A stretch of DNA of 64,000 bases. Origin: Candidatus Spongiihabitans sp. Its GTDB lineage: Bacteria; Pseudomonadota; Gammaproteobacteria; Arenicellales; Poriferihabitantaceae. The translations under genes and the position numbers were made by a program. Below, one piece after another: positions 5,981 to 25,173 of this stretch. The notes beneath the pieces were generated by a model, which saw only the letters and a list, made by a program, of their open reading frames with translations, did not search any database and was not told the DNA's origin. Location: the NCBI RefSeq assembly GCF_965237845.1, contig NZ_OZ250154.1:2391228-2455227 (forward strand), read 5' to 3'. The first letter of the stretch is position 1; each line of letters opens with the position of its first letter.

Positions 5981-7637
5981 TCTTTTTTACATTATCCAAT
6001 CTATACAACAAAAATGAAACCAAACTTAGGATATTGAGACAATCATTTTCAATAAAAAGTTTGTTTAATATTTCTCTAGTTTCTTGAGATTCAGGATTCC
6101 TAAATGCCTGCATCAAACCAACTGAAAGAGATCTTTGACCATGTTGTATATTAATTTCTGTTTCACTGGAAAGTTTAGAGACTTGAAGTTTCGGATAGTT
6201 AGTGATTTCTATTTTTCCTTTTTTCTTTTCATATTTGAAATTAAAAGCCTGATTCATCAAATCTACACCTGACAATTGAAGATTGAGTTCCCTTTTCACT
6301 TTATTGTCGTAAACAACAGTTCCTTCTCTTGCCGCTTCTAAATATTTGCCACTTTTGTAGTCCTCATATAGCCTTTCCTTAATAAGTGGATGCAAGTTTC
6401 TCCAATGATAATAAGGATAAGGGGGTATAAGTTCTTTAAGTTCGGTGAATAATTCAACAGACTTGTCAGATTCTACTTCGGGAAGATCTTCAATAAGTTT
6501 TTTAATAAAAATCTCAAAGTTATTTTTCATATTCTCTGGCATGGATTTTTTCCAATCTTCTATGCCAACAGCACCAAGATTCTGGCTGACCTTTGCAAAT
6601 TTTTCATCTTTACGTTTTTTACGCCAATCCACTTGCACAAACTGAACGCACTGCCCAAGATACTTATGAAGTTCACTCATTTGTAAATGTCCCCAGTTAA
6701 GATTCTGTCTATTGGTGGAAATCACATCCTCAAGAAAATCCTCTATAAAGTCCACTTTTAACCATCCTGTCATATACGAAAAGAAGTGGCTGGATGTGCT
6801 ATCAGCAAATTGATAGGGGGTTTGTACAAGCTTGCCTCGGGCAAACAAAGAAATACCTCTCGAATCAAATCTTGGTGCAATGGGTTTTTCGGGTGTAATA
6901 ATTTTGCCCTGAATTTTGGCAACATGTTCATAATCTGATTCTATATCAGTAAAATCGTCTGGAAAATCCCAAGAAAATTCCTCGCCAAATGCGGAAAAGC
7001 GCATATCATTCGATAACGTTACCGCTTCCCCATCGTTACGACGTATGGTGACGGCAAAATCTTCTTCAAAAATAAAAAATCTCGCTATGCTACTAGCAAG
7101 CAATTCTTCCGAAAAATCAGATGCTCGATTTATATTTGTCAGTGTTATTTTAGTTCCTATGTCATCTCCTTCAACAATTTCATCGACCACTTCCGGGGTC
7201 ATTAGATATTTTCCTTCCGAGGAATTCATTAAATCATTCCAATCCATCGTAAAAATATTTCGCTTCTTTTGCTTAACAGTGTTTATGGTAATTGTCTGAA
7301 CAATCCCAAAAAATGAGAGCTTTCCCAAACCCTTTTTACCAATAACCTCCCGACCTCTATGAGTTATACCCTCTCCATCTTTTCTGCGATTGCGGCCAAT
7401 AATAAGAAATTTGTTATCAATATCATTAAATGACATACCCATACCGTTATCTTTTACAATAATTCTTTTCTCTCCAACATCATGTAACTCCACTTCCACT
7501 CTTGTTGCGTCCGCATCGTATGAATTAGATATTAACTCACTCAAAACCGGCGGCAGGGTTGAATACATCCGAATCCCAAGATGTTCTATAACCTTCGGGT
7601 CAAATGTCATCGTTAATTGTTTGTCGTTTTGAGACAT
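5973..7637 (-). CDS. GHKL (Bergerat-fold, MORC-like) ATPase with a C-terminal Hypoth_Ymh/TIGR02391-like domain
   Basis: N-box ELISNSYDADA, G1 box VKDNGMGM and G2 box GKKGLGKLSFFG. The C-terminus reads YKSGKYLEAAREGTVVYDNKV...GVDLMNQAF...LSVGLMQAFRNPESQ...NILSLVSFLLYRLD. It starts 9 nt after dcm and overlaps vsr by 8 nt. Confidence 0.7.
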   Translation of the reverse strand: MSQNDKQLTMTFDPKVIEHLGIRMYSTLPPVLSELISNSYDADATRVEVELHDVGEKRIIVKDNGMGMSFNDIDNKFLIIGRNRRKDGEGITHRGREVIGKKGLGKLSFFGIVQTITINTVKQKKRNIFTMDWNDLMNSSEGKYLMTPEVVDEIVEGDDIGTKITLTNINRASDFSEELLASSIARFFIFEEDFAVTIRRNDGEAVTLSNDMRFSAFGEEFSWDFPDDFTDIESDYEHVAKIQGKIITPEKPIAPRFDSRGISLFARGKLVQTPYQFADSTSSHFFSYMTGWLKVDFIEDFLEDVISTNRQNLNWGHLQMSELHKYLGQCVQFVQVDWRKKRKDEKFAKVSQNLGAVGIEDWKKSMPENMKNNFEIFIKKLIEDLPEVESDKSVELFTELKELIPPYPYYHWRNLHPLIKERLYEDYKSGKYLEAAREGTVVYDNKVKRELNLQLSGVDLMNQAFNFKYEKKKGKIEITNYPKLQVSKLSSETEINIQHGQRSLSVGLMQAFRNPESQETREILNKLFIENDCLNILSLVSFLLYRLDNVKKNG

Positions 7638-7646
7638 AGAATTGTT

Positions 7647-8690
7647 TCATACTGCACAAATGGACTGTGCTATTCTGTAAGCGAGTTGCGGTGGTACGGC
7701 ATTGCCTATTAGTTTGGAGGCGGCTGTTGAGCTTTCACACACAAAAATATAGTCTTTTTCGAATGTCTGTAATGTCGCGCCCTCTCTTAGAGACAATCCT
7801 CTATCCTCTTCCGGGTGGGTAAAACGGCCGTTGGAAATCCCGTTGAATCTTGTTGTAATGGTCGAAGAAGGTTTATTCCATCTCAACCTTCCGTAAACAT
7901 CTCTAAAAGAATCATCTTTGCCTTTGTAAGCCTTCAGTTGAAGTTCGGGGTCGTCTTTCCATGCCTTTCTCGTTCCGCCATTTTTGGGGGTCAGTTTAAC
8001 GCGTCTCAGATTTTTTTCGGATAAAGATGCAACTGTATCCATGAAATCAGTATCATCTATATGCCCGGCTCGAAGGGCGGGAAAACCATTATGGGTTCCG
8101 ATAAATTCTGCCAGAATCGATTCTTTTTCGGGTTTGGGAAAATTGATCGATTCGTTCATCCTGGAAGCAATCAAAACAAATCTCTTCCTGCTCTGAGGTA
8201 CCCCATAATCCTTGGCGTTCAAAATATTTTCGGTAATCACATGTCCTTTTTCTTTAAGTTTTTCGCAAAAATTATCAAGTCCGCTTTCCGCTTCTTTTCT
8301 TTTCATTCCGGGAACATTTTCTATAATAACATAGCCCGGATTATAGTAATAGACAAAGCGCCAAAAATCTTGAAGTAGCCCCTTGCTTCCTTCAGATGAT
8401 CTTCTATTGGTATTCAAAACGCTCCAATACTGGCAGGGACTACATCCTATAAAAACTAAAGAATCATCATTGCGTTTAACCCCGCACTTTTTTTCCAGAA
8501 ACGTACGGGGAAGTTTCTTTATATCTTTCAGAAAAAATCTAGTCTCAGGATGATTTTTCTCATATGTCTCCTTGCAATCTTCATCTATATCTATACCCGC
8601 AACAACTTTCACCCCGGCCATCTTCATGCCCTGCGTCATTCCGCCCGCACCGCAGAAAAAATCGACGGCTTTCAACAACTTGGCTGTCAT
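7647..8690 (-). CDS. dcm: DNA (cytosine-5)-methyltransferase
   Basis: Motif I FCGAGGMTQG, motif IV GCSPCQYWS, motif VI ENVPGM, motif VIII QSRKRFVLIA and motif X GNAVPPQLA. Confidence 0.93.
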   Translation of the reverse strand: MTAKLLKAVDFFCGAGGMTQGMKMAGVKVVAGIDIDEDCKETYEKNHPETRFFLKDIKKLPRTFLEKKCGVKRNDDSLVFIGCSPCQYWSVLNTNRRSSEGSKGLLQDFWRFVYYYNPGYVIIENVPGMKRKEAESGLDNFCEKLKEKGHVITENILNAKDYGVPQSRKRFVLIASRMNESINFPKPEKESILAEFIGTHNGFPALRAGHIDDTDFMDTVASLSEKNLRRVKLTPKNGGTRKAWKDDPELQLKAYKGKDDSFRDVYGRLRWNKPSSTITTRFNGISNGRFTHPEEDRGLSLREGATLQTFEKDYIFVCESSTAASKLIGNAVPPQLAYRIAQSICAV

Positions 8691-11035
8691 TTGTCACCGC
8701 CCAGTCTTTCAATTAGTGTTACCACATGAGCCGCAATTGCGGATGAGGCCAAACGTAAAACCTTGTCTTCGTCATAGTCTTCTTGTCTGCCGGAGTTTTC
8801 TTTTTCAGCATCATGGATCAGTTTTTTATACATCGCCAAAGTGAGAATACCAACACCGAATCTAAAACGGTGTCTAATAATCTCCCTTTTATCTTCGTCC
8901 CTTTCTCTTAAAACCAGATACAAAAGATATTTGTTGCCTTGGTTCACATATACTGTCAACTCCTCTCCCACAGAAACATGGCCGCCCGATTCTTCTGTAT
9001 AATTGTAGTTATCCCAATCTTCCATTTTCACCCATACAATGTCAGGAAAATTAAGGGAACGCTCCTTTTTCTTCCTTGTATTGGTTTTATCTCCGCCAGA
9101 ATTTGTGGTTGTTTTCTCTTCATTGGAAATTTTTATTGTTACATCGAAAAGTAAAGGAGTGGTTCTCTCTGGATTAGAATCATTGAAGCCAAACTGAACA
9201 GAAATTTCATCCTTCACTTTGGCATTTTCTGGAGGGCTTACCTTTATGCGAAATTTTCCATTACGCAGAGAACCTGAATTTGGTAGTACATCAGGCATTG
9301 GATGCAAAAATTTGCCCTGGTCGGCTTCTCTTATTAAATAGTCGTTTTGAGCATCCGTCTTACATACAATCCATCTGTAAGAATTGATGGGAATACTTTT
9401 TACGTCACCTTCCTCCAAGTTTGTTGGCTTTAAATATGTTGGAAACATTTTTCCTTCATATTTGTCCTCGCCTCCGGACGTTTGGACCGGCTCAACGACA
9501 ATATCCCCAGCATCAAAAAGCTCTTGAAGGTCGAGATTGTTTTTGACAAGATCGGAAAGGAATTCTTTACTGGATTCTTTCTCTATCTGTTCGCTCTGAC
9601 GACGTTTTTTTATTTCTCGCGCATATTTTCTGAGTTCTCTGTCCTCTCTCAGGGAATCTATAACGATTTCCTTTAATTCTCTCGTCAATTCTATTTGCGC
9701 CATTCTTTCCCTGTCCGGCTTAAACACGGCGGAGCGTGCCGTGTTGTCCATGGCATTACAGTCAATTTGAACAAGTAGATGGTTTCTTAGATCATCAAGT
9801 TGTGCCTTGCGCAATAAACTTGCTCTTTCCTTGGCTTGGGATTGACCGTTGATCGTGTAAAACATTCTGTAAGAGTAGTTGCGCAAATACTCCTTCATTT
9901 TGTCCAAGACAAAATAGGATATGCGAATAGTCCCCAAACTGCTATTTTCGGAATTCTCAGTCACGCCTTCAAAGTCGACTCGGCTTGTTTCGCCTTCTTC
10001 ATCATCAGATTTAAGCACTGTCTTCATACCGGAAAAAGTTCTTGGGGCTATACCTTCCGCCCTAAGGCCAACTTTTGTGGGCTTGGCATCAAAATCATAA
10101 AAACGAAGAGGCAAAGCACAGTCAATCAAACTTGTCGTGAGTGCGTCATACAATCCCAAATCAACATTACGGGAACCGGGGCCTATGTCATATTCATATA
10201 GTTTTACAACGCTGCCGCCATCTTTAACAACACCAATGTCCGCCCTGTCGTTGAAAGCTCTAATCTCATCAGCCTCAAAACAGGCAATTTCCCCATTGGG
10301 ACAGAAATACTCAACTACGGGCAGATCCTCCCCCTTGTGCGGACTCCGTACTCTTATTAGAGTCCATCCCCATAGGCCATCCGAATCGTCCAGGTTTCTC
10401 TTCGAGAGAATGAGTTTGTACATTCCACTCCTGATTTCCGCTCGGGTACAAAAAGTTATGGACCCGGTACTACCCATATTAAAACGCCCCTGAACAAATG
10501 GAATGCCGTCCTTGTTCTTCTCTCCGAGAGACAGAAAAGTCTTTTCAAAGTCTCCGTGATTTTGACCTTCACCAAAATCAACTATCGTGTAATTTGGGCA
10601 AGTGTCCCTTTTGGCTTTTCTTTGAATGCCTATCAAAACACTCTTTTCGGCCAATTTTGTCCTTTGCCCTTGACTTAACAGTGTTAATTTTCCTTCTTGA
10701 ACTTCGGGGAAAAAGAGCTTAACCGCTTCGCTCATGCTTTGGGGAACCGCTTCGCTCTCCAAATCCAGCCTCTTCTCCTTCGCCTTCCGCATGAGGATTG
10801 CGTCAATAGAATTAATAATCAGTTCCGCCAACGCACCGACAGGCTCGCTTGTTTGGACACCTACCCTGTCCCAATTCTTTTCAGCACCGCCGTAGGGTTT
10901 CCAATTCTTGTCATCGCTAAACTCGGATCGGCTTTTCAGAATTTCATTGACTTGTTCAGTGGAAAGCGCACGCAGGAAACCCTCCGCCGTTAACTTGGAA
11001 ATTTGGCTATTGGAAAACTTACCTGAATTAGTCAT
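8687..11035 (-). CDS. Large (782 aa) GHKL-like ATPase with about 500 aa of unrecognised C-terminal sequence
   Basis: N-box ALAELIINSIDA, G1 box IVDFGEGQ and G2 box GRFNMGSTGSITF. The rest has no motif I can name. Its stop overlaps the dcm start (ATGA, 8687-8690). Confidence 0.6.
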   Translation of the reverse strand: MTNSGKFSNSQISKLTAEGFLRALSTEQVNEILKSRSEFSDDKNWKPYGGAEKNWDRVGVQTSEPVGALAELIINSIDAILMRKAKEKRLDLESEAVPQSMSEAVKLFFPEVQEGKLTLLSQGQRTKLAEKSVLIGIQRKAKRDTCPNYTIVDFGEGQNHGDFEKTFLSLGEKNKDGIPFVQGRFNMGSTGSITFCTRAEIRSGMYKLILSKRNLDDSDGLWGWTLIRVRSPHKGEDLPVVEYFCPNGEIACFEADEIRAFNDRADIGVVKDGGSVVKLYEYDIGPGSRNVDLGLYDALTTSLIDCALPLRFYDFDAKPTKVGLRAEGIAPRTFSGMKTVLKSDDEEGETSRVDFEGVTENSENSSLGTIRISYFVLDKMKEYLRNYSYRMFYTINGQSQAKERASLLRKAQLDDLRNHLLVQIDCNAMDNTARSAVFKPDRERMAQIELTRELKEIVIDSLREDRELRKYAREIKKRRQSEQIEKESSKEFLSDLVKNNLDLQELFDAGDIVVEPVQTSGGEDKYEGKMFPTYLKPTNLEEGDVKSIPINSYRWIVCKTDAQNDYLIREADQGKFLHPMPDVLPNSGSLRNGKFRIKVSPPENAKVKDEISVQFGFNDSNPERTTPLLFDVTIKISNEEKTTTNSGGDKTNTRKKKERSLNFPDIVWVKMEDWDNYNYTEESGGHVSVGEELTVYVNQGNKYLLYLVLRERDEDKREIIRHRFRFGVGILTLAMYKKLIHDAEKENSGRQEDYDEDKVLRLASSAIAAHVVTLIERLGGDK

Positions 11036-11094: not shown

Positions 11095-11515
<421 letters not shown>

Positions 11516-11526
11516 AATAAAATCAA

Positions 11527-12834
<1,308 letters not shown>

Positions 12835-13155
12835 TCAATCCCAACGGTCGTCTTTAACCTGCACAACCCCGTTGACAACTTGTAGCGGAAATGTATCAAT
12901 CGGTTCATATGCAGGGGGTGCAGCAACTTCTCCGGTTTTAATATTAAATTGCGCGCCATGCCGCGGGCATTCAATATTCTCCCCAATCACACAACCGCTG
13001 GCAATTTCACTGCCATCGTGGGTACATACATCTTCAAGCGCGTAAAACTCGCCATCAAGGTTGAAAATGACAATCATTGCATCGTCCACTTCAACGACAA
13101 CGTGTTTTCCGGGTTTTAATTTATCCGCCTTGACGGCGTTAATCCATTCACTCAT
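12835..13155 (-). CDS. Rieske (2Fe-2S) ferredoxin-like protein
   Basis: CTHDGSEIASG...CPRHGAQFNIKTGEV Rieske motifs. Its stop directly abuts the murA start codon. Confidence 0.8.
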   Translation of the reverse strand: MSEWINAVKADKLKPGKHVVVEVDDAMIVIFNLDGEFYALEDVCTHDGSEIASGCVIGENIECPRHGAQFNIKTGEVAAPPAYEPIDTFPLQVVNGVVQVKDDRWD

Positions 13156-13173
13156 TTTGGCACTATATCAGGA

Positions 13174-13632
13174 CTATATCAGGCCCAATTCCAAACGCGC
13201 CGCCTCGCTGATCAATGCCGGGGTCCAGGGCGGGTCCCACACTAATTCCACGGCAGCGCCTTTAATCCCCGGAACCAAGGCCACGGTTCGTTCAACCATG
13301 CCGGGAAAGGTCGCCGCCACCGGACAACCCGGCGCGGTAAGGGTCATATCAATATCCGCAAAGGCATCGTTAATATCCACTTTATAAATCAACCCGAGGT
13401 CATAAATATTCACCGGAATCTCAGGATCGTAAACCGTTTTCAATGCCTCGACTACGCGCTCCGCTAACTCATTTTCGGTTGCTGCGGGTAAATCGTCTGT
13501 ATCGACTGGCGTATCAGTCGGTTGGCCACTCGGTTGGCTACTCGGTTGGACTGGGCCATTATCTGCATTAAACTGTTGCATGATTTCGGTTTTCCTCTTT
13601 TCAAGTTGCGGATCAAAATTTACTCGTTTCAT
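13174..13632 (-). CDS. sufT: DUF59/SufT-like Fe-S assembly protein with a Pro/Gln/Ser-rich N-terminal extension
   Basis: VVEALKTVYDPEIPVNIYDLGLIY...TLTAPGCPVA...VWDPPWTP. Confidence 0.75.
   Translation of the reverse strand: MKRVNFDPQLEKRKTEIMQQFNADNGPVQPSSQPSGQPTDTPVDTDDLPAATENELAERVVEALKTVYDPEIPVNIYDLGLIYKVDINDAFADIDMTLTAPGCPVAATFPGMVERTVALVPGIKGAAVELVWDPPWTPALISEAARLELGLI
13518..13553. repeat. 12-bp tandem repeat x3 (tcggttggccac / tcggttggctac / tcggttggactg)
   Basis: Read directly from the sequence. It encodes QPSSQPSGQPT in the sufT-like gene. Confidence 0.9.
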
Positions 13633-13655
13633 GGCTTAATAATTTGTTCAAATAA

Positions 13656-14975
13656 TTAAATTTCGTGAATTAACTGACTGGCCAGGGTTTTTTCTAAAAC
13701 ATCTCGCAAAGGCTCAATATCAATCTGATTCAATACTTCGTTGACAAAAGCATAGGTTAATAATGTACGCGCATCGGCTTCATCGATTCCGCGCGTCCGC
13801 AAATAGAACATTGAATCCTCATTGAGTTGCCCAATTGTTGCGCCATGAGAACATTTAACGTCATCGGCGTAAATTTCAAGCTGGGGTTTGGTGTCGATTT
13901 CCGCATCCCGGGACAACAGCAAGGTATTGTTAGCTTGATGCGCATCGGTTTTTTGAGCGCCCGAGGCCACTTTTATGCGCCCGTGAAATACCGCTCTGGA
14001 GCGTTGCTCCAGCACCCCTTTGTAAAGCTCATTGCTGGTGCAGTTTTCTGCCTGATGAACCATTGTAGTATGGTTGTCAACATGCTGCTTGCCTGACAAA
14101 CTATATACTCCCAGCATGTCACAATGCGCCCCCGGGCCATTCAAATCAACTCGCAAATCGTTTCTTACCAAGCCGCCGCCCAAGGTAATTGTTCGACAAC
14201 TAAATCGACTGCCTTCTGCCTGTTTTACCCACACGCCACACACCTGATAAGCAGATGAGGATTGCGTTTGAATAATATAATAATCAATTTCAGCTCGCTG
14301 TTCGACAATAATTTCTGTTGTACTATTGCTCAGAGTATGTGCAGTGCTATTCGAAATGTAGCGATCAATAAACTGCGCCCTGCTGTTCTTACCCGCAATA
14401 ATCAGATTTCTCGGTTGAGAAATTGCCATTTCAGTTTGGCTCAGGAATATCAGCTCAATTGGCTTTTCTATTTGGACGTCTGGTTCAATTTTGATTACCA
14501 CACCGTCTTCATTCAAGGCGCCATTCAAGGCGGTAAATCCGTGGCTGTTGTTTTTTACAACGCTGCCAAAATATTTCTCCACTAAGCCGGGGGTATTGGT
14601 TAGAACTTCGGATAGTGACCGGACAGTAATGTCGCCCTTATTCAGGTCCAGCGTTGATTGCTTTTGATCCAAATGACCATCGACAAATACAATTTGATAA
14701 CTATCGAGTGCAGGGATTTTGAACCGGGTTAGATCAACGTTGCGGTGCGGCGTGGTAACCACATTGAAGTTTTTACTGGTAATCAATCGCAACGGCGTAT
14801 AGCGCCAATCTTCGTCGCGCTGAGTTGGAAATCCGATTTTGCTGAATCGCGCCAGATATTTTTTACGCTGGTCATCAAACCAGGCAACATCAATCCCCGG
14901 CAAACCTTTGTTAAGTCGCGCAAATTGGTCGATGTAATGCGCGGTGTCGGCTGCGACAAATGTATCAGGCTGCAT
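13656..14975 (-). CDS. sufD: Fe-S cluster assembly protein SufD
   Basis: SufD-like C-terminal beta-helix region (LLLSRDAEIDTKPQLEIYADDVKCSHGATIGQL). The start is moved to the MQPDTF ATG at 14975, which overlaps the sufC stop by 11 nt. The track's 15068 start runs into sufC. Confidence 0.85.
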   Translation of the reverse strand: MQPDTFVAADTAHYIDQFARLNKGLPGIDVAWFDDQRKKYLARFSKIGFPTQRDEDWRYTPLRLITSKNFNVVTTPHRNVDLTRFKIPALDSYQIVFVDGHLDQKQSTLDLNKGDITVRSLSEVLTNTPGLVEKYFGSVVKNNSHGFTALNGALNEDGVVIKIEPDVQIEKPIELIFLSQTEMAISQPRNLIIAGKNSRAQFIDRYISNSTAHTLSNSTTEIIVEQRAEIDYYIIQTQSSSAYQVCGVWVKQAEGSRFSCRTITLGGGLVRNDLRVDLNGPGAHCDMLGVYSLSGKQHVDNHTTMVHQAENCTSNELYKGVLEQRSRAVFHGRIKVASGAQKTDAHQANNTLLLSRDAEIDTKPQLEIYADDVKCSHGATIGQLNEDSMFYLRTRGIDEADARTLLTYAFVNEVLNQIDIEPLRDVLEKTLASQLIHEI

Positions 14976-15711
14976 CTTCAATCCAACTATAACCTTTATT
15001 TTCCAACTCCAATGCCAACGATTTATCGCCAGAACGAATAATTCTTCCTTCTGCAAGCACATGCACAAAATCAGGCACTATGTAGTCGAGCAAGCGTTGA
15101 TAGTGGGTCACCACAATCATGGCGCGATCCTTATTTCTCAATGTATTGATGCCATGCGCCACAATTTTCAACGCATCAATATCCAGCCCGGAATCGGTTT
15201 CATCGAGAACGCTTAAATAAGGTTCCAACAACGCCATTTGCAGAATCTCATTGCGTTTTTTCTCGCCGCCGGAAAAGCCTTCATTGATCGAGCGATATAA
15301 AAACGCCTCGTTCATTTCCACCAGCGCCGCCTTTTCCTTGATCAGTTTAAGAAACTCAACGGCGTTCAACTCCTCATCGCCGCGATGCTTGCGAATGGCG
15401 TTGATGGATGCCTTGAGTAAGTACAGATTCGTAACCCCCGGAATCTCGACCGGATACTGAAAGGCCAGAAAAAGCCCTTCCCGGGCGCGGATTTCCGGCT
15501 CCATTTCGAGCAAATCCCAACCCTTATAGGCAACCGACCCGGCGGTGATTTCGTAGTTATCGCGTCCCGCCAGCACGTTGGCCAAGGTGCTTTTGCCGGA
15601 GCCGTTGGGGCCCATAATCGCATGCACTTCGCCGGCCGCAACCTCCAGACTGATGCCGTTAAGTATGGCCTTGCCGTCCACGCTGGCGTGGAGTTTTTTA
15701 ACTGTAAGCAT
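14965..15711 (-). CDS. sufC: Fe-S cluster assembly ATPase SufC
   Basis: Walker A GPNGSGKST, signature FSGGEKKR and Walker B LSVLDETDSGLD. Confidence 0.95.
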   Translation of the reverse strand: MLTVKKLHASVDGKAILNGISLEVAAGEVHAIMGPNGSGKSTLANVLAGRDNYEITAGSVAYKGWDLLEMEPEIRAREGLFLAFQYPVEIPGVTNLYLLKASINAIRKHRGDEELNAVEFLKLIKEKAALVEMNEAFLYRSINEGFSGGEKKRNEILQMALLEPYLSVLDETDSGLDIDALKIVAHGINTLRNKDRAMIVVTHYQRLLDYIVPDFVHVLAEGRIIRSGDKSLALELENKGYSWIEDAA

Positions 15712-15772
15712 TTATATGACTCAGATTTGATTAAATTATTAAAAGACTTATCATTTTTCAGGGACGACGAGA

Positions 15773-17008
15773 CTAATACATTGGCGTTAAGTTTTTCTGA
15801 ATTCGCATTCTGTATTGCAGATATTCCATTGGCCTGTCGCCTTTTATGCTGTTGCAATTGCCACAAAGCAATTGGAAATTTTCCATGTAATCGCCACCGC
15901 CCTTTGACTTGGGGACAATGTGGTCAAGGTGGAAATTCGGTAAGTCAAACTCTTTTTTACAGCCGTTACATACACCTTCCTGCTCGTCGAAAAGAATCTT
16001 TTTAATTTGCGGTTTTTTCAGTTTGGTTTTGACAATATCGGTTCGCATCGGCGGCTTGTCGGTGGCCAAAAAATCTGTAAATACTTCCTTCTTAACATCA
16101 TCCGATTTCAGCAATCCCTGCGCGGTGGCATCCGTTAATCTATCCCGCACTAAATCCACCGCAACATCGCTCACATCAATGCCAATCCAATTGCGTTGCA
16201 ATCGATGCGCGGCGACGCAGGTGGTCGCACAACCGCAGAATGGATCCAACACCAAGTCGCCTTCGTTGCTGCTGGCTTTGATGATGCGGTCCAACAACGC
16301 CAGCGGTTTTTGCGTGGGGTAGCCGGTGACTTCCGGTTGATTGCCCCTTAATGCGGGTATGTCCCAAATGTCTCTGCAATGCACGTAGCGATAAGTTCCG
16401 CCATCGTCGGAAAGAATCTCGATGTTTTTAAATCCATATTTATGCGATAAATACGATTTTTCTTTTTGCAAATTAAATACATACTCTCTCCCCTTGGAGT
16501 AAAAGAAAACAACATCGTGTTTTCGCGAGAAATGTCGTTTACTCACCCCGCCCGTTTTATACGCCCAAGCAATTTCATTTCGAAAATTATGCTTGCCAAA
16601 AACTTCATCCAACATAATTTTCAGGTAATGGCCGGCAGTCGGGTCGCAATGCAAATATAAACTGCCTGTTTCTTTCAGCACCCGATGCATTTCAATCATC
16701 CGCTGTGCCATGAAGGTCAAATACGCCTTCATGGGCAAGCCGTGTATTTCTCCGGCGCTGCCAATAAACCTAAAGAGCCGGGGATATTTATCAAGGAACG
16801 CTTCCAAGCGTATGTCAATATCCTCGCTCCAAACCCAAATATCATCGAAACCAGCCTCTTTTTTGCCGGCTGGCGTGCCAATCGGGACGCGATAAATCCG
16901 CTTGGAATTAAACGGCGGGTCAAGGTAAATCAAATCCACCGTGCGACTATTCATACCCATAAGGACGGAAAGATTGTCGCCGACATATATTTTATTTTGG
17001 CTTTGCAT
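15773..17008 (-). CDS. Beta-class N6A/N4C DNA methyltransferase fused to a C-terminal HNH endonuclease domain
   Basis: Motif IV DLIYLDPPFN lies upstream of motif I VLDPFCGCATT, which is the beta-class order. The C-terminus reads CNGC...HLDHIVPKSKGGGDYMENFQLLCGNCNSIKGDR (HNH). The start is set at the MQSQNKIYVGDN ATG (17008), 19 nt after the sufB stop. The track's 17125 start overlaps sufB. Confidence 0.85.
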   Translation of the reverse strand: MQSQNKIYVGDNLSVLMGMNSRTVDLIYLDPPFNSKRIYRVPIGTPAGKKEAGFDDIWVWSEDIDIRLEAFLDKYPRLFRFIGSAGEIHGLPMKAYLTFMAQRMIEMHRVLKETGSLYLHCDPTAGHYLKIMLDEVFGKHNFRNEIAWAYKTGGVSKRHFSRKHDVVFFYSKGREYVFNLQKEKSYLSHKYGFKNIEILSDDGGTYRYVHCRDIWDIPALRGNQPEVTGYPTQKPLALLDRIIKASSNEGDLVLDPFCGCATTCVAAHRLQRNWIGIDVSDVAVDLVRDRLTDATAQGLLKSDDVKKEVFTDFLATDKPPMRTDIVKTKLKKPQIKKILFDEQEGVCNGCKKEFDLPNFHLDHIVPKSKGGGDYMENFQLLCGNCNSIKGDRPMEYLQYRMRIQKNLTPMY

Positions 17009-17027
17009 CGTGGTTCTTCCGGCAACG

Positions 17028-18479
17028 CTATCCAACCGACCCTTCCAAACTAATCCCCAACAGTTTCTGCGCTTCAACCGCAAACTCCATGGGCAATTCC
17101 CTGAAAACGTCCTTGCAGAATCCATTCACGATCATGGAGATGGCATCTTCTTCCGACAGGCCACGTTGACGGCAGTAAAATAATTGGTCTTCGCCGATGC
17201 GCGAGGTGGTGGCTTCGTGCTCAACCACTGCGGTTGGATTTTTAACCTCCATATAAGGAAAAGTATGGGCTCCGCATTTATCGCCCATCAACAATGAATC
17301 GCACTGCGAATAATTACGCGCATTTTCCGCGCCCTTAACCACCTTGACTAATCCGCGATAAGAATTTTGTCCATGACCGGCGGAAATGCCTTTTGAAATA
17401 ATCGTGCTTTTTGCGTTCTTGCCGATATGCACCATCTTGGTGCCGGTATCCGCTTGCTGATAATTATTGGTCAGCGCCACCGAATAAAATTCGCCGATGG
17501 AGTTGTCCCCTTCGAGCAATACGCTGGGGTATTTCCAGGTGATCGCCGAGCCGGTTTCCACTTGAGTCCATGAAATTTTGGCGTTTTCCCCACGGCATGC
17601 GCCACGTTTGGTCACAAAGTTATAAATACCGCCCTTGCCGTTTTCATCCCCCGGATACCAGTTCTGTATGGTGGAGTATTTGATCTCGGCGCCGTTCAAG
17701 GCGATTAGCTCCACCACCGCCGCATGTAATTGATTTTCATCTCGTTGCGGCGCTGTGCAGCCTTCAAGATAACTCACATAACTATCTTCATCGGCGATGA
17801 TCAGGGTTCGTTCAAACTGCCCGGTATTCATCGCATTGATTCGAAAGTAGGTTGACAATTCCATTGGGCAACGAACGCCCTTTGGTATATAAACAAATGA
17901 GCCTTCGCTGAATACTGCGGAATTTAGCGCGGCATAATAGTTATCGCCCGATGGCACCACAGAACCGAGATATTGCTTCACCAATTCAGGATAATCTTTC
18001 AGGGCTTCCGATAACGGACAAAAAATAACCCCTGACTCGGACAGAGTCTTTTTAAATGTTGTGACTACCGACACACTATCAAATACCGCATCCACCGCAA
18101 CCTTGACCCCGGCCAGCATTTTTTGTTCGTCGAGGGGAATACCCAGCTTTTCGTAGGTCTCGAGCAGCTTCGGATCGACTTCATCCAGGCTGTCCAGCAG
18201 CTGTTTCTGCTTGGGCGCGGAATAATAGCTAATTTCCTGAAATTCCACGGGCGGGTAATTCAAATGCGGCCACTCTGGAGATTCCATTTCAAGCCAATGC
18301 CGATAGGCGCCTAACCGCCATTCCAGCAAAAATTCCGGCTCCTCTTTTTTGGCGGAGATAATACGAATTACATCTTCGTTTAGCCCGGGAGGCAGCGTAT
18401 CCGCATCAATATCGGTAATAAAGCCTTCTTTATAGTCTCGCTGAACTAAAGAAGCGATTTCTTGTTCTGTACTGGTCAT
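17028..18479 (-). CDS. sufB: Fe-S cluster assembly scaffold SufB
   Basis: 483 aa with highly conserved SufB blocks ([57 protein letters not shown]). Confidence 0.95.
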
Positions 18480-18517
18480 TTAATTATTCCACGTATTTAA
18501 AATGATTCTTGTTTAAT

Positions 18518-19009
18518 TTATGAAGAGATTACGTTGGTCGAACTTTCCAAAATTGGCAAATTCACGAACTGTGAATTGCTGGATTCATCAGTGCGCTGTT
18601 GACCGACCCCGCTTTGTCGCATCAACTGGCCCAATCGTATGCCTGCCAAAAACCTATATAATTGATCGCTCAATTCACTCCACAAATCGTGCGACAGGCA
18701 GCGCTTGCCATCGTGGCAGTTTTGTGCACCGTCGCATTGGGTGATGTCGAGCGGCTCGTCCACCGCAACCACAATATCGGCCATGCTGATTTGATCAACA
18801 TCTTTTGCAAGAACATATCCACCCCCCGGTCCACGCGTGCCAGTCACCAAATCAGATTTCCGCATTTTAGAAAACAGCTGTTCGAGATAGGACAGTGAAA
18901 TCCCTTGATTATCCGATATACTTTTCAACGTAACTGGCCCATTGCGCTGGTTAATTGCCAAATCAATCATTGCAGTAACGGCATATCGGCCTTTGGTTGT
19001 CAGATGCAT
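18518..19009 (-). CDS. iscR: Rrf2-family Fe-S regulator, IscR-like
   Basis: MHLTTKGRYAVTAMIDLA wHTH N-terminus. C-x5-C-x5-C-x2-H ligand spacing (QCDGAQNCHDGKRCLSH). Confidence 0.85.
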   Translation of the reverse strand: MHLTTKGRYAVTAMIDLAINQRNGPVTLKSISDNQGISLSYLEQLFSKMRKSDLVTGTRGPGGGYVLAKDVDQISMADIVVAVDEPLDITQCDGAQNCHDGKRCLSHDLWSELSDQLYRFLAGIRLGQLMRQSGVGQQRTDESSNSQFVNLPILESSTNVISS

Positions 19010-19498: not shown

Positions 19499-22400
19499 AT
19501 GAAACTTGAAATCGCATTTTTAGATATTGAGGTTGGCGCCACCAGCAACAAAATAGATGATTTAGGTTATTTGTCTGAAAAATCAGCACTTGAAACGAGT
19601 TCTGTAAGTCAAATAAAAGACCGTTGTTTGCGTGAAGGAATTAGGTTTATTTGTGGACACAATTTTATTGAACACGATAAAAAATTTCTGGCAAAAACTA
19701 GTTTTAATCCAGTTTTAGAACAGATTAACATTATCGATACTTTGTATCTTTCAATGCTTTTATTTACTACTAAACGCACACACAAACTCGATAAACCATA
19801 TAAAAACAATCAAATCAATATTGAAAATCAGCCGTTAGGAGATGCTGCTCAAACAAAGGCATTATTTGAATTATTAGATAACGAGTTTGATAAACTATCA
19901 GTAAAAAAACAACAAATATTCTATCAATTATTAAAAAATGATAAATATTTTTCAGGTTTTTTTGATTTTAAAAAAGTAGCCAATAAAGAGATTGATATAT
20001 ACGAACAGATAAAAAAGCATATTGTTGTCAACAGTAAAGACTACAAAGAAAATGAAATAAATCATCCAGTAGAGATTGCTTTTATTATTTCTTATTTAAT
20101 GTCAAATGACAAAGGGGCTATATCATCAATTCTCTTAATCAAATATCCTGAAGTTGTAAAGTTATTAAAGCAACTTACTTTTGATAAAGACAAGGTAAAT
20201 ATTGAAAAATTTACCAAAGATGAATTTGGTGTTGATACTTTCAGGGAGTTTGATAAAAATGAGGTTGATGCTTATCAATTTTCCAGAGATGAACTTGCAC
20301 TTACCAACCCGACAGAGATTGAAAAAATATCACAAAAGGACATTATAGAAAGTGCGATTGATACCGATTCATTGCTAGCAATATTGCCAACGGGTGGCGG
20401 TAAAACCCTTGCTTTTCAAATCCCCGCTTTACTTAAAGCACAAAAATATAAAGGATTGAGTGTCGTTGTTTCCCCGCTTCAAGCCTTAATGAAAAACCAA
20501 ATAGATAGTTTCAGGCGTAAAAATAATAATTTTACGGTGCTGGCTATTAGTGGATATTTAAGCCCTATTGAACGCATGAACGCCATTACTGAAGTGGAAA
20601 ATGGGACTGCTGATATTTTGTATTTGGCACCTGAATCATTACGCTCTAATTCTATTTTTAACGCCCTTAAAAAACGCATTATTGAGCGCTTTATTATTGA
20701 CGAAGCACATTGCTTTTCATCTTGGGGGCATGATTTTAGGCACGATTACTATTTTATTGCCGAGACGATTAAGGAATTGGAACAATCCAGTTTTCAACCC
20801 CTTATTCCCGTGTCTTGCTTTACCGCAACAGCAAAGCCAGAGGTTATCAAAGATATAAAAGATTATTTCAAAGAAAAATTAGATATTACACTAAATAAGT
20901 TTATTGCCTCTGTTGAGCGTTATAACTTGCAATATAGCGTGATTGAAAGCAAAACAGCAGAGGATAAATACGAACAATTAATTAAAATTTTACTAGAGCG
21001 CGACAAAGCGAGCAAAAATCCGACCATTATTTATATTCCTCAAAACGCCAGACAATGCAGAGAACTGAGTGAAAAATTGCAAAATGATGAGCGGCTCACT
21101 GAGCTTGATTTGGTCATAGAACCTTTTTATGCCAAACTTGATGATGACAAGGAAGAGGGCAGAAGAGATAAAAACGCCAGAGGAAAATTTGAAATATTAG
21201 CGGATTTTATTGACAATAAAATTGATATTGTCATTGCAACCACTGCTTTTGGGATGGGGATTGATAAGGCGGATATTCAAACCATTATCCATTATCAGCA
21301 ATCGGATAGTTTGGAGTCTTATTTGCAAGAGTCGGGTCGTGGGGCGCGCGATGAAAATTTAATCGCCAAATGTATTGTCTTATATTCAAAAGAAGATTTT
21401 GATCGCTCGTTTACGCAGCTTAACCGCTCAAAAGTTGATATTGCCGAGATTAAAAGAATTGTCAAGGCGCTCAAAGGTTATGGAAACGACAAACTTAATT
21501 TATCGCCAAAAGACATTTCCAGAAAAATAGGGGTGGATACAGAAGACAGCAAAATTGATTATGACCTGATTATTAAAACTGCACTGTTGGAATTAGAACA
21601 ACACAATATTATTAAACGCGGTAGAGATGGTTATAAAATATTTGCAACTTCGCTTGAAAAACAAGAGCAGAAAAACATGTCTTTTGTGCATGAAGTGTTA
21701 GACCCTAAACAACAGCAAGAACCCTATATTGAGCTATATAAAGATATGATCTTGGTGATGCAAAATGTTATCCAACGGTCTAAATTAGACGCGATTGAAG
21801 TTGATGATTTGTCAGATATTGTTGGTGTGGGAAAACCAAGAATTTTTGATGTGCTATATCAGTTGCAAAAAGACGGATTATTGAAATTTAATAATGACAT
21901 TAGCCTCCATATTAAAAAATCAGTTCAAAAAGAGTTTGGGGATCATTTTGAGATGGAACAGAAGATATTTGACGGAATAAAAAATACTCCGGTTTACGAG
22001 AAAAGCATCAATTTACGAAGCCTGAATGATGAGAATAGCAATGATGTAATATTATTTAAGCAAATTATTCAAAGTTGGGGGCATTTATCAAGACTTAAAA
22101 ACAATATTTTTACCGCACGATTTAAAAACGATTTTTGCTTGTTTGAATTACAAGATGAACAAAAACTAGATAAACTCGTAAAAGCCAGAAAAGAATTATC
22201 ACTGTTTATTATTGAGCAATTACTGAACATATTAGGCACAGACATAGCCAAAGAGATTGAATTTTCCAGCAATAAAATAAAAGTGGATTATCACTCACCA
22301 ACACTGACCATAGAGGCGTTTCATCATACTTTTGTTTATTTGCACGATATGTTGAAAAGTTTTGAATTGCGTCGGGGTCGGTTGATTTATCATCACACCC

Positions 22401-23353
22401 TTAAATTGGATTTACAAAAAAAGATAAGGGAGAGAATGCCTTACCAAAACAGCCATTATGATAGTGGATTAAAGCATTATTATGAGCGAAAAATCGAAGC
22501 CATTCATATTCAAATTGCATTTTTAGAACGGTTACTAGCACAAGGTTGGCATGACACAAAAGACTTTGTCAAAAATTATTTTTCGATGGAATACGGCGCG
22601 TTTAAACAAATTTATCATTTTAATGAAAAAGAGATAAAACGACCCGTTACTAAAGAGAAATATCAACAAATATTAGAAAACCTAAACGCTGAACAAAAAC
22701 AAATTTTTAACGATACTTCTTCGCAAGCCATTATGGTTTTAGCCGGTCCAGGTAGCGGTAAAACCAAAACTTTAGTGCATAAAATTGCTTCGTTAATTAC
22801 GATTGAGAACAACAAGGCAGAATATTTTTTGATGCTCGCGCATTCAAGGGTTGCGGTTGCAGATTTTAGAGACAAACTCAAAAAACTCATTGGCAACCAA
22901 GTTTATACGGTGCGTATTCATACTTTTCATTCTTTTGCTTGCTCCCTATTAGGAAAAAATATTAGTGATGCTAATGAGTTACAAAACGTGCTACAAACAA
23001 CCGCCCAAATGCTCAATAACAATAAAATAACGATGCCGTTTATTAGTATGTTGGTCGTGGATGAATATCAGGATGTTGGCAAGCAAAGTTATGAATTTAT
23101 TAAAGCTATTTACACCAATATGGGCGTGAGCAAGACTGATAAAAAAATTATTGCGGTGGGCGATGATGACCAATGTATTAAAAACTATGGTGGTGATAAG
23201 GCTGACATTAAATATATCAAAGAATTTAAGCAATATTTTGGCAAAGACATCGCAGACTCGAGTAAATTTTCATCCTATCAGTTGCTAAATAATTATCGAA
23301 GTGGGGCTAATATTGTTGATTTTTTTACCCAATTTAGCAGTGTTATCGACTAA
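19499..23353 (+). CDS. Multidomain protein: DnaQ-like 3'-5' exonuclease + RecQ-family SF2 helicase + N-terminal half of a UvrD/PcrA-type SF1 helicase. It ends at an in-frame TAA.
   Basis: Exonuclease motifs IAFLDIEV and CGHNFIEHDKKFL. RecQ motifs LPTGGGKTLAFQIPAL, FIIDEAHCFSSWGHDFR, ATTAFGMGIDKADIQ and QESGRGARD. UvrD motifs LAGPGSGKTKT, VVDEYQDV, AVGDDDQCI and NNYRSG. Confidence 0.8.
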   Translation: MKLEIAFLDIEVGATSNKIDDLGYLSEKSALETSSVSQIKDRCLREGIRFICGHNFIEHDKKFLAKTSFNPVLEQINIIDTLYLSMLLFTTKRTHKLDKPYKNNQINIENQPLGDAAQTKALFELLDNEFDKLSVKKQQIFYQLLKNDKYFSGFFDFKKVANKEIDIYEQIKKHIVVNSKDYKENEINHPVEIAFIISYLMSNDKGAISSILLIKYPEVVKLLKQLTFDKDKVNIEKFTKDEFGVDTFREFDKNEVDAYQFSRDELALTNPTEIEKISQKDIIESAIDTDSLLAILPTGGGKTLAFQIPALLKAQKYKGLSVVVSPLQALMKNQIDSFRRKNNNFTVLAISGYLSPIERMNAITEVENGTADILYLAPESLRSNSIFNALKKRIIERFIIDEAHCFSSWGHDFRHDYYFIAETIKELEQSSFQPLIPVSCFTATAKPEVIKDIKDYFKEKLDITLNKFIASVERYNLQYSVIESKTAEDKYEQLIKILLERDKASKNPTIIYIPQNARQCRELSEKLQNDERLTELDLVIEPFYAKLDDDKEEGRRDKNARGKFEILADFIDNKIDIVIATTAFGMGIDKADIQTIIHYQQSDSLESYLQESGRGARDENLIAKCIVLYSKEDFDRSFTQLNRSKVDIAEIKRIVKALKGYGNDKLNLSPKDISRKIGVDTEDSKIDYDLIIKTALLELEQHNIIKRGRDGYKIFATSLEKQEQKNMSFVHEVLDPKQQQEPYIELYKDMILVMQNVIQRSKLDAIEVDDLSDIVGVGKPRIFDVLYQLQKDGLLKFNNDISLHIKKSVQKEFGDHFEMEQKIFDGIKNTPVYEKSINLRSLNDENSNDVILFKQIIQSWGHLSRLKNNIFTARFKNDFCLFELQDEQKLDKLVKARKELSLFIIEQLLNILGTDIAKEIEFSSNKIKVDYHSPTLTIEAFHHTFVYLHDMLKSFELRRGRLIYHHTLKLDLQKKIRERMPYQNSHYDSGLKHYYERKIEAIHIQIAFLERLLAQGWHDTKDFVKNYFSMEYGAFKQIYHFNEKEIKRPVTKEKYQQILENLNAEQKQIFNDTSSQAIMVLAGPGSGKTKTLVHKIASLITIENNKAEYFLMLAHSRVAVADFRDKLKKLIGNQVYTVRIHTFHSFACSLLGKNISDANELQNVLQTTAQMLNNNKITMPFISMLVVDEYQDVGKQSYEFIKAIYTNMGVSKTDKKIIAVGDDDQCIKNYGGDKADIKYIKEFKQYFGKDIADSSKFSSYQLLNNYRSGANIVDFFTQFSSVID

Positions 23354-23401
23354 CGCTTAAAGACCGATAAATTAGTAGCACATAGACAACAGCAGGGAAA
23401 A

Positions 23402-24394
23402 GTGAGTTTAATTCGTTATCAAAATAGTGATTATTACACCAATATACTCAATAGTGTCAAAGCCAATACTTCTAATAATATTGCCATCTTAGCAAGAAAA
23501 AATAAGGAGGTTTTATCAATCTATTCCATGCTAGTTTCAGACAATATAAAAGCGCGTTATATTGCGGATAATAATAGTTTTAGATTGGGTAATTTAGTTG
23601 AATTAACAGATGTTTTACAAAACTGGCGGGAGACAGAAGACTTTGAAAAAAGCAGAAATAATTCAGACACTATTTATGGAAAATCAAACAATAACGCATT
23701 AAAAAATGCGGTGCTTGATAAATTTGAAGATGAGTATCAAGCGGAAATTAAAAAAAGCCAGCAGCATTTTATTGGCGTATTTGAGCAGTATTTACATAAA
23801 ATCACTTTTGATGAATTTGAACTTGGCAAGAGTAAAGTTACTGTCTCCACCATACACAAAGCCAAAGGAAAAGAGTGGGATGAAGTTTATATATGTGCAC
23901 AAGATGACTTCATAAGCACCAACCCACAACAGGCGCAATACGATAAACGCTTAGCTTATGTTGCCATTACTCGAGCAAAAAACAGCCTTTATATTCATTC
24001 TAAAATAACACTATTTGATGGTTTTATCGATTATTTTGATGAGCACAATATCTGCAATACTCAATTTGAACCGCTTAAAACTATTGTCCTGTTAATGGGT
24101 TTGGATGATATAGTATTGACCTATTCATACTCTCAAGAAGGCATTGCAAAAAGTTCTCCTCTGGCTGGCGAAGTTGTGGATGTCATTGACAAACAACAAT
24201 ATATAACTATTGCTAAAGATAATAATCAAATTGCTTCATTGTCACAAAAAATGATTGAAAAGATACGGGATGAAAATGGCTACAGGTTAAACAATAAGGC
24301 GGAAATTGAAAATGTAGTTGAATGGGTGAATAAAGAGGATGGCAAAAAATACAAACAGGTATTATGTAAAATTTATTTGTCAAAAGAACATTAA
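23402..24394 (+). CDS. C-terminal half of the same UvrD/PcrA-type helicase plus about 130 aa of extra C-terminal domain
   Basis: It is in the same reading frame as 19499-23353, separated by one TAA and 16 sense codons. Motifs VSTIHKAKGKEWDEVYI and RLAYVAITRAKNSLYIH are UvrD motifs V/VI. Confidence 0.8.
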   Translation: MSLIRYQNSDYYTNILNSVKANTSNNIAILARKNKEVLSIYSMLVSDNIKARYIADNNSFRLGNLVELTDVLQNWRETEDFEKSRNNSDTIYGKSNNNALKNAVLDKFEDEYQAEIKKSQQHFIGVFEQYLHKITFDEFELGKSKVTVSTIHKAKGKEWDEVYICAQDDFISTNPQQAQYDKRLAYVAITRAKNSLYIHSKITLFDGFIDYFDEHNICNTQFEPLKTIVLLMGLDDIVLTYSYSQEGIAKSSPLAGEVVDVIDKQQYITIAKDNNQIASLSQKMIEKIRDENGYRLNNKAEIENVVEWVNKEDGKKYKQVLCKIYLSKEH

Positions 24395-24561
24395 TTGAGG
24401 CAACTCTTATCGTATTTGCACCATAAATAGAATATTCTATTATTTAGTAGATGAAAAATGCCAATAGTGAAAGAACTGCATGGAGGTCGGTGTGAATATC
24501 CCCACTTTAACGGATACTTTTGGGTGTTAGGAAATGTCGCCTCGCAAATCGTTGTACTGTA

Positions 24562-25173
24562 ATGGCGGCAAGGGTCGGACTCACCGGCGGCATTGGCAGC
24601 GGCAAAACCACCGTTGCCAGCTGCTTTGCCGGGCTTGGCGTTCAGGTTATTGACGCCGACCAGATTGGGCGGGACATTACCGAACCCGGAAGCGCACAAT
24701 CCGAACAAATCCTCGCTCAAATCATGGAACACTTTGGGCGCGCAATAATGGATTCCCAAGGCCGCCTCAAGCGTAAACGACTCGGCCAGATGGTCTTCAA
24801 TTCCCCGCAAAAAAGGAAACTGCTCGAGTCCATTCTGCACCCGCCAATCTTGGACAAAATGTTGGCGCAATGCCGGCAAAGCAAATCGCCCTACTGCATA
24901 CTTGAAATTCCACTGCTCATCGAAAGCGGGCAGCATGAATTAATGGGTCGCGTCGTAGTGGTCACCTGTAATCCCGAAACACGAACAAGTCGGTTACAGC
25001 AGCATCGAAAGATGAGTGTGGATGAAATTAACCGCGTTTTGGACACACAATTGAGCGATCAGGATAGATTAGCCAAGGCAGATGATGTCATTGTTAATGA
25101 CTCAACTATCGCCGCGCTTAAACAGCAAGTAAATATCTTGCACGAAAATTATTGGTCAATGTTCGGGGCTTAA
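24562..25173 (+). CDS. coaE: Dephospho-CoA kinase
   Basis: VGLTGGIGSGKTTVA P-loop and ...ILHPPI.... The start is set at the ATG at 24562 (MAARVGLTGG). Confidence 0.85.
   Translation: MAARVGLTGGIGSGKTTVASCFAGLGVQVIDADQIGRDITEPGSAQSEQILAQIMEHFGRAIMDSQGRLKRKRLGQMVFNSPQKRKLLESILHPPILDKMLAQCRQSKSPYCILEIPLLIESGQHELMGRVVVVTCNPETRTSRLQQHRKMSVDEINRVLDTQLSDQDRLAKADDVIVNDSTIAALKQQVNILHENYWSMFGA

Follow-up and report, generated by a model that had tools for sequence, protein, structure and literature searches.

What is a DNA methyltransferase fused to a predicted nuclease doing between two genes of the iron-sulfur (Fe-S) suf operon? The question is raised by a 64,000-nucleotide (nt) stretch of contig NZ_OZ250154.1 (positions 2,391,228 to 2,455,227), called here the window, from Candidatus (Ca.) Spongiihabitans sp., a sponge-associated gammaproteobacterium of the order Arenicellales and family Ca. 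Poriferihabitaceae. In this window a gene of 411 amino acids (aa), designated MT-HNH, lies between sufB and sufC and encodes a beta-class amino-methyltransferase (MTase) followed by a zinc-ribbon HNH domain. An initial annotation, made from the sequence alone, had proposed that such a protein was either a one-protein restriction-modification (R-M) or addiction module or a homing-type selfish element that had colonised an essential operon. The sequence comparisons presented here lead us to favour, with about an even chance of being right, a self-contained, single-polypeptide R-M or selfish module resembling Type IIC enzymes, which would be transcribed by read-through of the suf operon and whose link to Fe-S functions would be incidental.

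Pfam searches placed an N6_N4_Mtase domain (PF01555) at residues 24-286 (E = 1.2e-49, 169.6 bits against a cut-off of 26.7) and an HNH domain at residues 347-392 (E = 7e-12, 45.7 bits against a cut-off of 21.4), the second of which was also matched by HNH_5 (E about 7e-12). The methyltransferase half has the circularly permuted order of the beta class: the catalytic motif DPPF precedes the target-recognition domain (TRD), which is followed by motif I, the binding site for S-adenosylmethionine (AdoMet). In agreement with the fusion described in the initial annotation, the motifs quoted there are present, and they are invariant in 119 homologues. These homologues, aligned as proteins of 392-473 aa, represent a lower bound on a family with at least 119 full-length members. 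HNH residues C347, C350, D362, H363, N377, C382, C385 and N386 were found in all 119, indicating that the catalytic residues are intact rather than degenerate.

The AlphaFold2 (AF2) model of the protein was confident (pLDDT 83, pTM 0.83). Foldseek matched its methyltransferase part to CcrM, M.BceJIV, M.RsrI and MboIIA with E values of 1e-14 to 1e-17, and phmmer returned E values of about 1e-17 to 1e-19 against beta-class enzymes, at an identity of only about 21-24%. MT-HNH shares with CcrM, M.BceJIV, M.RsrI and M.MboIIA both the fold and the succession of DPPF, TRD and motif I. It differs from them in that they have no nuclease domain, and CcrM has a conserved specificity and a role in the cell cycle. 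The Asp of DPPF and the best NCBIfam matches, which are adenine-specific, suggest that the enzyme would produce N6-methyladenine (m6A). The HNH part was matched by the NCBIfam models for Cas9d (E = 6e-12) and IscB (E = 6e-9), and its sequence relatives in the PDB were Cas9 (8d2k), McrA (6ghc) and a group II intron maturase (6me0); no solved protein chain joined an MTase part to an HNH part. With the HNH domains of Cas9, IscB, McrA and group II intron maturases it has in common the beta-beta-alpha-metal core, the DH...N...N pattern and two CxxC pairs. The guide of those domains is RNA, a separate DNA-binding domain or a modification reader, whereas the only candidate guide in MT-HNH is the TRD. 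Zinc-ribbon HNH domains are also found in the restriction enzymes KpnI, Hpy99I and MnlI.

In the databases, the identical entry (P0001; 100% identity over a protein of 411 aa), which comes from a 2.74-Mb contig, is named 'DNA methyltransferase [Ca. Spongiihabitans sp.]', other members are also labelled plain DNA methyltransferase by NCBI and JGI, and PADLOC called MT-HNH MTase_II, a Type II MTase for which it registers no cognate nuclease. These labels would suit an orphan methyltransferase with an epigenetic or anti-restriction function, in which the HNH domain served for DNA binding or repair nicking or was a phage-derived relic. We consider this explanation unlikely, in part because of the state of the nuclease: its catalytic residues and zinc ligands are invariant, both domains were kept in all of the 120 best database matches (49-100% identity), and the HNH segment is as conserved (mean pairwise identity 63% among the 119 proteins) as the MTase core (65-73%). 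Together with the low ratios of nonsynonymous to synonymous substitution (dN/dS) given below, these features argue that the predicted nuclease is not a decaying relic. They also call for caution in annotation, since the names given to MT-HNH genes record the methyltransferase only.

Occupied and empty sufB-sufC junctions

The position of the gene reported by the initial annotation, 19 nt after the sufB stop codon, 61 nt before sufC and on the same strand, was exact to the base (Table 1). Comparison with other genomes confirmed that sufB and sufC normally adjoin each other. Among 80 distant genomic loci encoding a SufB 71-84% identical to that of the window, both genes were located in 76; they were separated by 3-660 nt, and MT-HNH was present in none. 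The junction was also empty in two closer relatives, L169 (SufB 93% identical, gap of 85 nt) and L171 (SufB 92%, gap of 97 nt), in which the rest of the cluster is collinear with that of the window. It was occupied in three strains of one species with SufB about 99% identical, namely the window and the loci L001 and L252, and no empty allele was seen within this population. The initial annotation had named a gene present throughout the clade, or a degenerate HNH site, as findings contrary to its proposal; the relatives are empty and the HNH residues intact, therefore neither was what we found.

Both spacers are nearly identical in the three occupied strains. The 19-nt spacer does not differ at all between the window and L001, the nearest difference being one base inside the end of sufB. 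Such near-identical junctions point to one insertion, in the common ancestor of the three strains. As judged from these alignments, MT-HNH is an accessory gene that was inserted once, in a recent ancestor of this species, into a sufB-sufC spacer of roughly 80-100 nt. The two remaining spacers add up to 80 nt, about the length of an empty spacer, so the inserted unit would be essentially the open reading frame (ORF) alone. The comparison of suf operons that the initial annotation had called for thus settled which junctions are occupied and which are empty; it did not yield exact insertion boundaries, as the spacers of L169 and L171 (85 and 97 nt) are too diverged to be aligned with the junctions of the window. 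Direct or inverted repeats flanking MT-HNH were limited to short chance matches. In a further relative, L170 (Logan SRR7464845 contig; SufB 98% identical, 88% at the DNA level), the contig ends exactly at the sufB stop codon, where the assembly may have broken because the insertion junction is polymorphic.

Could the gene have been recruited to the suf pathway, its methylation or nicking being deliberately coupled to Fe-S or oxidative-stress regulation? The gene is on the same strand as its neighbours, the spacers are short, and a crude consensus scan detected neither a promoter nor a terminator belonging to MT-HNH on the gene strand between sufB and sufC, nor a terminator-like hairpin in the 61-nt spacer, a result that is weak evidence because the same scan also missed any iscR promoter. 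The gene has been kept under purifying selection in the three strains, and its GC content at third codon positions (GC3, 0.53) equals that of the suf genes, so it bears no compositional signature of foreign origin. All of this would fit recruitment. A component of the operon would be expected to recur in it, however, and MT-HNH is absent from 78 other suf operons (the 76 distant ones, L169 and L171), which include the closest relatives outside the species. Its paralogues and homologues lie in unrelated operons, and its four cysteines belong to a standard HNH zinc ribbon and not to an Fe-S motif. We therefore regard recruitment as very improbable. The link to Fe-S or oxidative-stress regulation raised in the initial annotation was probably the wrong emphasis, as members of the family are found among many unrelated sets of housekeeping genes.

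Exchange of the recognition domain and distribution of the family

Comparison of the window with L001 revealed that the variation within MT-HNH is concentrated in one segment. The IscR, SufB, SufC and SufD proteins of the two strains are 97-99% identical, and their DNA about 97% identical; the MT-HNH proteins are only 79% identical. The difference is limited to a tract at about 16164-16860 (minus strand), the core of which (residues about 148-227) cannot be aligned. Identity declines towards the TRD in a graded manner, with 13, 19, 60, 40 and 26 mismatches in successive stretches of 150 nt against a background of 1-9, whereas identity at the DNA level is 99-100% over the first 30 codons and throughout the HNH half. 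Outside the TRD, dN/dS was 0.085 in the N-terminal part and 0.137 in the C-terminal part, values which indicate that this portion of the protein is under purifying selection. In the 450 nt of the segment at 15714-16163, made up of the HNH half together with the 61-nt spacer, the two strains differ by 3 mismatches, compared with about 4 per 150 nt in the flanking suf genes; this similarity reflects either unusually strong constraint or a recent exchange of the segment between strains.

The same pattern was found in other settings. L252 carries the allele type of the window and comes from the same sample as L001 (ERZ25072730), therefore two specificities co-exist in one sponge metagenome. In another organism (L084), a tandem pair of MT-HNH genes between trkA and trkH has 0-4 mismatches per 90 nt outside the TRD and unrelated sequences inside it. 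TRD types also cross backbones: the TRDs of the L001 protein (P0003, residues about 148-236) and of P0020 are 82% identical on backbones that are 65% identical. Across the 119 proteins the mean pairwise identity of the TRD segment falls to 32%, and the TRDs form 55 clusters. Collectively, these alignments indicate that the TRD is exchanged as a cassette, both between near-identical strains and between tandem copies.

Exchange of this kind is difficult to reconcile with an orphan methyltransferase. The specificity of regulatory orphan MTases, CcrM and Dam among them, is fixed, whereas the TRDs of MT-HNH are hypervariable and have been replaced between strains whose suf DNA is about 97% identical. 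The gene is missing from sister lineages and is therefore not a conserved regulator, and we found neither the vertical conservation nor the fixed specificity that characterise MTases of the CcrM and Dam type.

The family is very large, and the genome of the window contains a second copy (P0013, 58% identical); neither fact, nor the exchange of TRD cassettes, had been noticed in the initial annotation. Members are solitary or in tandem among housekeeping genes, with several copies per genome. They were found between trkA and trkH, directly upstream of rpmF-plsX-fabH-fabG-acpP-fabF and in the interval from purMN to pgsA-hda; others overlap the beginning of a peptidase M23 gene or lie beside a hydantoinase gene. 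Full-length copies were detected by tblastn at 47 loci, and a crude ORF caller recovered the gene at 42 of them (45 copies). At these 42 loci about 78% of the flanking genes on either side share the strand of MT-HNH, and the gaps are often shorter than 30 nt. The 67 neighbouring proteins matched 89 Pfam families, mostly unrelated or housekeeping ones; they included one IS1595 transposase and two other N6_N4 MTases, and no nuclease, recombinase or specificity subunit recurred among them as a partner.

Tandem genes between trkA and trkH that differ only in the TRD were seen at L084 (6001-8644), L085 and L086 (3229-6643). The second copy of L086 reaches 691 aa through additional PH_gly_zipper and SHOCT domains, and a nearby gene encodes an IS1595 transposase. 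At L002 (7265-10579), a 63%-identical MT-HNH gene, a gene for a HEAT-repeat protein matched weakly by N6_N4_Mtase and a gene for a 247-aa N6_N4_Mtase protein are interleaved with glnA and other housekeeping genes, which suggests that methylase genes are densely spread in this genome.

No full-length MT-HNH (at least 80% coverage) was found among 72,556 plasmid or 50,697 phage records, which also speaks against an orphan MTase of phage or plasmid origin. Of the 80 best IMG/VR loci only about 8 included the HNH part, full-length copies being rare. Relatives consisting of the MTase alone (about 45-49% identity, at most 51%) are common in phages and plasmids, and this is a point in favour of the orphan explanation, as are the solitary state of the genes among housekeeping genes and the regulated expression that placement in an operon would provide. 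The named sources of MT-HNH proteins are sponge symbionts and, by record names alone, apparent termite-gut bacteria. A search with the HNH module alone returned 662 cluster representatives at E <= 1e-10; it gave little information on other architectures because many matches were short fragments. We found no description of a beta-class MTase-HNH fusion in the open-access literature, and nothing there on this gene under the name Spongiihabitans. The family appears to be known as sequences labelled 'DNA methyltransferase' and to be functionally uncharacterised.

How such a gene could have reached so many spacers bears on a further explanation, in which MT-HNH is a self-protecting element of the homing type: the HNH domain would cleave empty or unmethylated targets, repair would insert the bare ORF, and the MTase would shield the carrier. 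Consistent with this, the mobile unit corresponds approximately to the ORF alone, placed between conserved genes; presence is sporadic among close relatives; several copies, including tandem ones, occur per genome; and the landing sites are the spacers of housekeeping operons. Neither a recombinase nor repeats were found, and different MT-HNH loci have no flanks in common, apart from about 45 nt upstream of the tandem duplicates in L084. The break of the L170 contig could reflect junction polymorphism of the expected kind. Phages have free-standing homing endonuclease genes such as the seg and mob genes of T4, and mobile R-M units are reported to settle in gene clusters resembling operons (Furuta, Abe and Kobayashi, 2010). 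MT-HNH resembles both in being a bare, sporadically distributed ORF between conserved genes that has neither a recombinase nor terminal repeats; unlike the phage genes, it resides in a bacterial chromosome and its nuclease is fused to a methylase.

Several observations make homing doubtful nonetheless. Empty and occupied alleles were not seen in one population, and the three occupied strains share the same junctions, as expected from one old insertion. The TRDs of beta-class MTases read short sites, whereas homing endonucleases recognise long targets, and a nuclease given a new TRD would no longer be directed at any fixed homing site. The two alternatives offered by the initial annotation, the R-M or addiction module made of one protein and the selfish element of the homing type, remain the leading explanations.

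A candidate combined restriction-modification enzyme

The nuclease is intact and was not lost in any best match, and the gene is solitary, sporadic, present in multiple copies and equipped with an exchangeable TRD. These properties lead away from an orphan MTase or a suf function and towards a one-gene R-M or selfish unit. In the mechanism that we propose for such a unit, the single TRD inside the beta-class MTase (probably N6-adenine-specific) would read a short DNA sequence and, with AdoMet as cofactor, MT-HNH would methylate it in the DNA of the host. The C-terminal HNH domain would nick or cut DNA at or near unmethylated sites, and homodimers, as formed by CcrM and M.BceJIV, could produce double-strand breaks. 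Recombination with paralogues would swap the TRD cassette and, because one TRD would serve both activities, alter restriction and protection jointly. Joint control by the TRD would explain why near-identical strains and tandem copies differ in the TRD only. MT-HNH would be expressed when transcription from the IscR-controlled suf promoter continues through the gene, which is probable because no promoter or terminator of its own was recognisable, and the Fe-S context would be a tolerated landing site without functional partnership.

Precedents for this arrangement are provided by combined R-M enzymes: when their specificity module changes, both activities change with it, and this has enabled specificities to diverge widely (Pingoud et al. 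2014, PMC4081073). Canonical Type IIC/IIG enzymes consist of an N-terminal PD-(D/E)XK nuclease and a gamma-class (NPPY/F/W) MTase; BtgZI is an exception, whose MTase is N-terminal and of the alpha class and whose PD-(D/Q)XK nuclease is C-terminal (PMC4081073). Like MmeI, BpuSI, Eco57I and BtgZI, MT-HNH has nuclease, MTase and a single specificity module in one chain. Type IIC/IIG genes can also stand alone, and their specificity diverges by change or exchange of the recognition module, comparable to the TRD-only differences of MT-HNH. In these enzymes one specificity module directs both activities, and the cleavage of unmodified DNA often depends on AdoMet. In contrast to them, MT-HNH has a beta-class MTase, an internal TRD and a C-terminal HNH nuclease, is much smaller (411 aa), and has a predicted activity. 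As the canonical composition is not present, we describe MT-HNH as a functional analogue and do not file it as a member of Type IIC/IIG.

A number of points weigh against this interpretation. The likeness to Type IIC/IIG is one of architecture only, the known enzymes having an N-terminal PD-(D/E)XK nuclease and a gamma-class MTase, and we found no published activity for any MT-HNH member in the open-access literature. HNH domains of the clade to which that of MT-HNH belongs are usually single-strand cutters. The neighbours of MT-HNH are housekeeping genes and not defence islands, which is atypical for a defence gene. A TRD swap should create new unmethylated sites in the host, which would be dangerous for an active enzyme unless cleavage were tightly gated. 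The support for co-transcription consists of one crude consensus scan.

We therefore present MT-HNH as a candidate variant of combined R-M enzymes with a testable TRD-cassette polymorphism. If active, it would add a compact beta-class-MTase/HNH architecture of about 410 aa to a group in which a PD-(D/E)XK nuclease has so far been described with a gamma-class MTase and, once, with an alpha-class one. It would also constitute a natural library of dozens of swappable recognition cassettes on a near-constant scaffold, attractive for the engineering of sequence-specific nickases, cutters and methylases. The locus illustrates that defence or selfish genes can be embedded in essential symbiont operons as ORFs that have no promoter, and that co-existing strains can differ in specificity through cassette replacement; both are relevant to barriers against gene flow at the strain level and to resistance to phages in sponge microbiomes. 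Its importance would be greater if the activity, or homing, proved true. In a more speculative version, which we think quite improbable, MT-HNH genes would form a new class of autonomous homing or restriction genes that protect themselves and invade, as bare ORFs, the short spacers of housekeeping operons in populations of symbionts from sponges and probably the termite gut. The break made by the HNH domain would drive insertion or post-segregational killing, the methylase would immunise the carrier, and TRD exchange would retarget both, resulting in strain-level polymorphism of specificity within one sponge sample.

Layout of the suf cluster and other islands in the window

The features of the locus are listed in Table 1. 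The translation of the regulator gene at the head of the cluster contains a C-x5-C-x5-C-x2-H ligand pattern, typical of IscR. A GGAAG purine run lies in the 19-nt spacer, 9-13 nt 5' of the MT-HNH start codon. A longer ORF of 450 aa (start at 17125) was rejected: it is an upstream extension that overlaps sufB, and the homologues and the 411-aa entry P0001 favour the Met codon at 17008. The sufT-like and Rieske genes, whose order is kept in L001, L169 and L171, complete the conserved cluster. No sufS/sufE cysteine desulfurase gene is present within the suf cluster (12835-19009, minus strand), and the layout of L169 and L171 is alike. In L252, sufD was called as two pieces of 91 and 290 aa (6034-7352), owing to a frameshift or an error in a contig of 6x coverage. 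No Rfam family reached its gathering score within the window.

Table 1 Coordinates of MT-HNH, its motifs and the surrounding suf genes in the window
Feature	Position	Strand	Basis and remarks
Rrf2/IscR-type regulator	18518-19009	-	Pfam Rrf2, E = 5e-39; head of the suf cluster
sufB	17028-18479	-	Pfam SUFBD_core, E = 4e-79; 71-99% identity to SufB of the compared genomes
Left junction, 19-nt spacer (sufB TAG stop to MT-HNH ATG)	17009-17027	-	Sequence
MT-HNH gene, 411 aa	15773-17008	-	ATG at 17008; beta-class amino-MTase and C-terminal zinc-ribbon HNH
Catalytic motif IV, DPPF (aa 30-33)	16910-16921	-	Invariant in 119/119 homologues
TRD (aa 148-227)	16328-16567	-	Hypervariable cassette; unalignable between the window and L001
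AdoMet-binding motif I, DPFCGCATT (aa 255-263)	16220-16246	-	D255-T262 invariant, T263 at least 90% conserved (119 homologues)
HNH core (aa 347-392), CxxC...DH...N...CxxCN	15833-15970	-	Pfam HNH/HNH_5
Right junction, 61-nt AT-rich spacer (MT-HNH stop to sufC start)	15712-15772	-	Sequence
sufC	14965-15711	-	Pfam ABC_tran; 99% identity to L001 SufC
sufD	13656-14975	-	Pfam SUFBD_core, E = 5e-87; 11-nt overlap with sufC; same layout in L001
sufT-like gene	13174-13632	-	Pfam FeS_assembly_P
Rieske ferredoxin gene	12835-13155	-	Pfam; followed downstream by murA

Two further islands were observed near the suf cluster. The first (19499-24394, plus strand) lies between coaE (24520-25173) and iscR and has a GC content of 25-37%, compared with 46% for the window. 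It contains an ORF of 1284 aa resembling DpdF/RecQ and UvrD/GajB helicases, followed by a separate UvrD_C ORF of 330 aa; the two look like one giant helicase gene split by a frameshift or stop codon, and the helicase counterpart in L252 has 1631 aa. The same site is occupied by pilB-pilC-pilD in L169 and L171, and coaE adjoins iscR in L170.

The second island (5973-11035, minus strand) is inserted between murA and hisD, two genes that adjoin each other in L169. It encodes a 782-aa protein with a weak GHKL match (HATPase_c_3), a 347-aa C5 cytosine DNA methylase and a 554-aa MORC-like protein with HATPase_c_3 and Hypoth_Ymh domains, with GC3 values of 0.31-0.42, and may represent a Dcm-linked, MORC-type defence module. 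Just downstream of murA (11095-11632, minus strand), short ORFs resemble by eye the C-terminus of hemB (porphobilinogen synthase) and the N-terminus of a PAPS-reductase-like protein; these could be remnants of genes at the boundary of the island.

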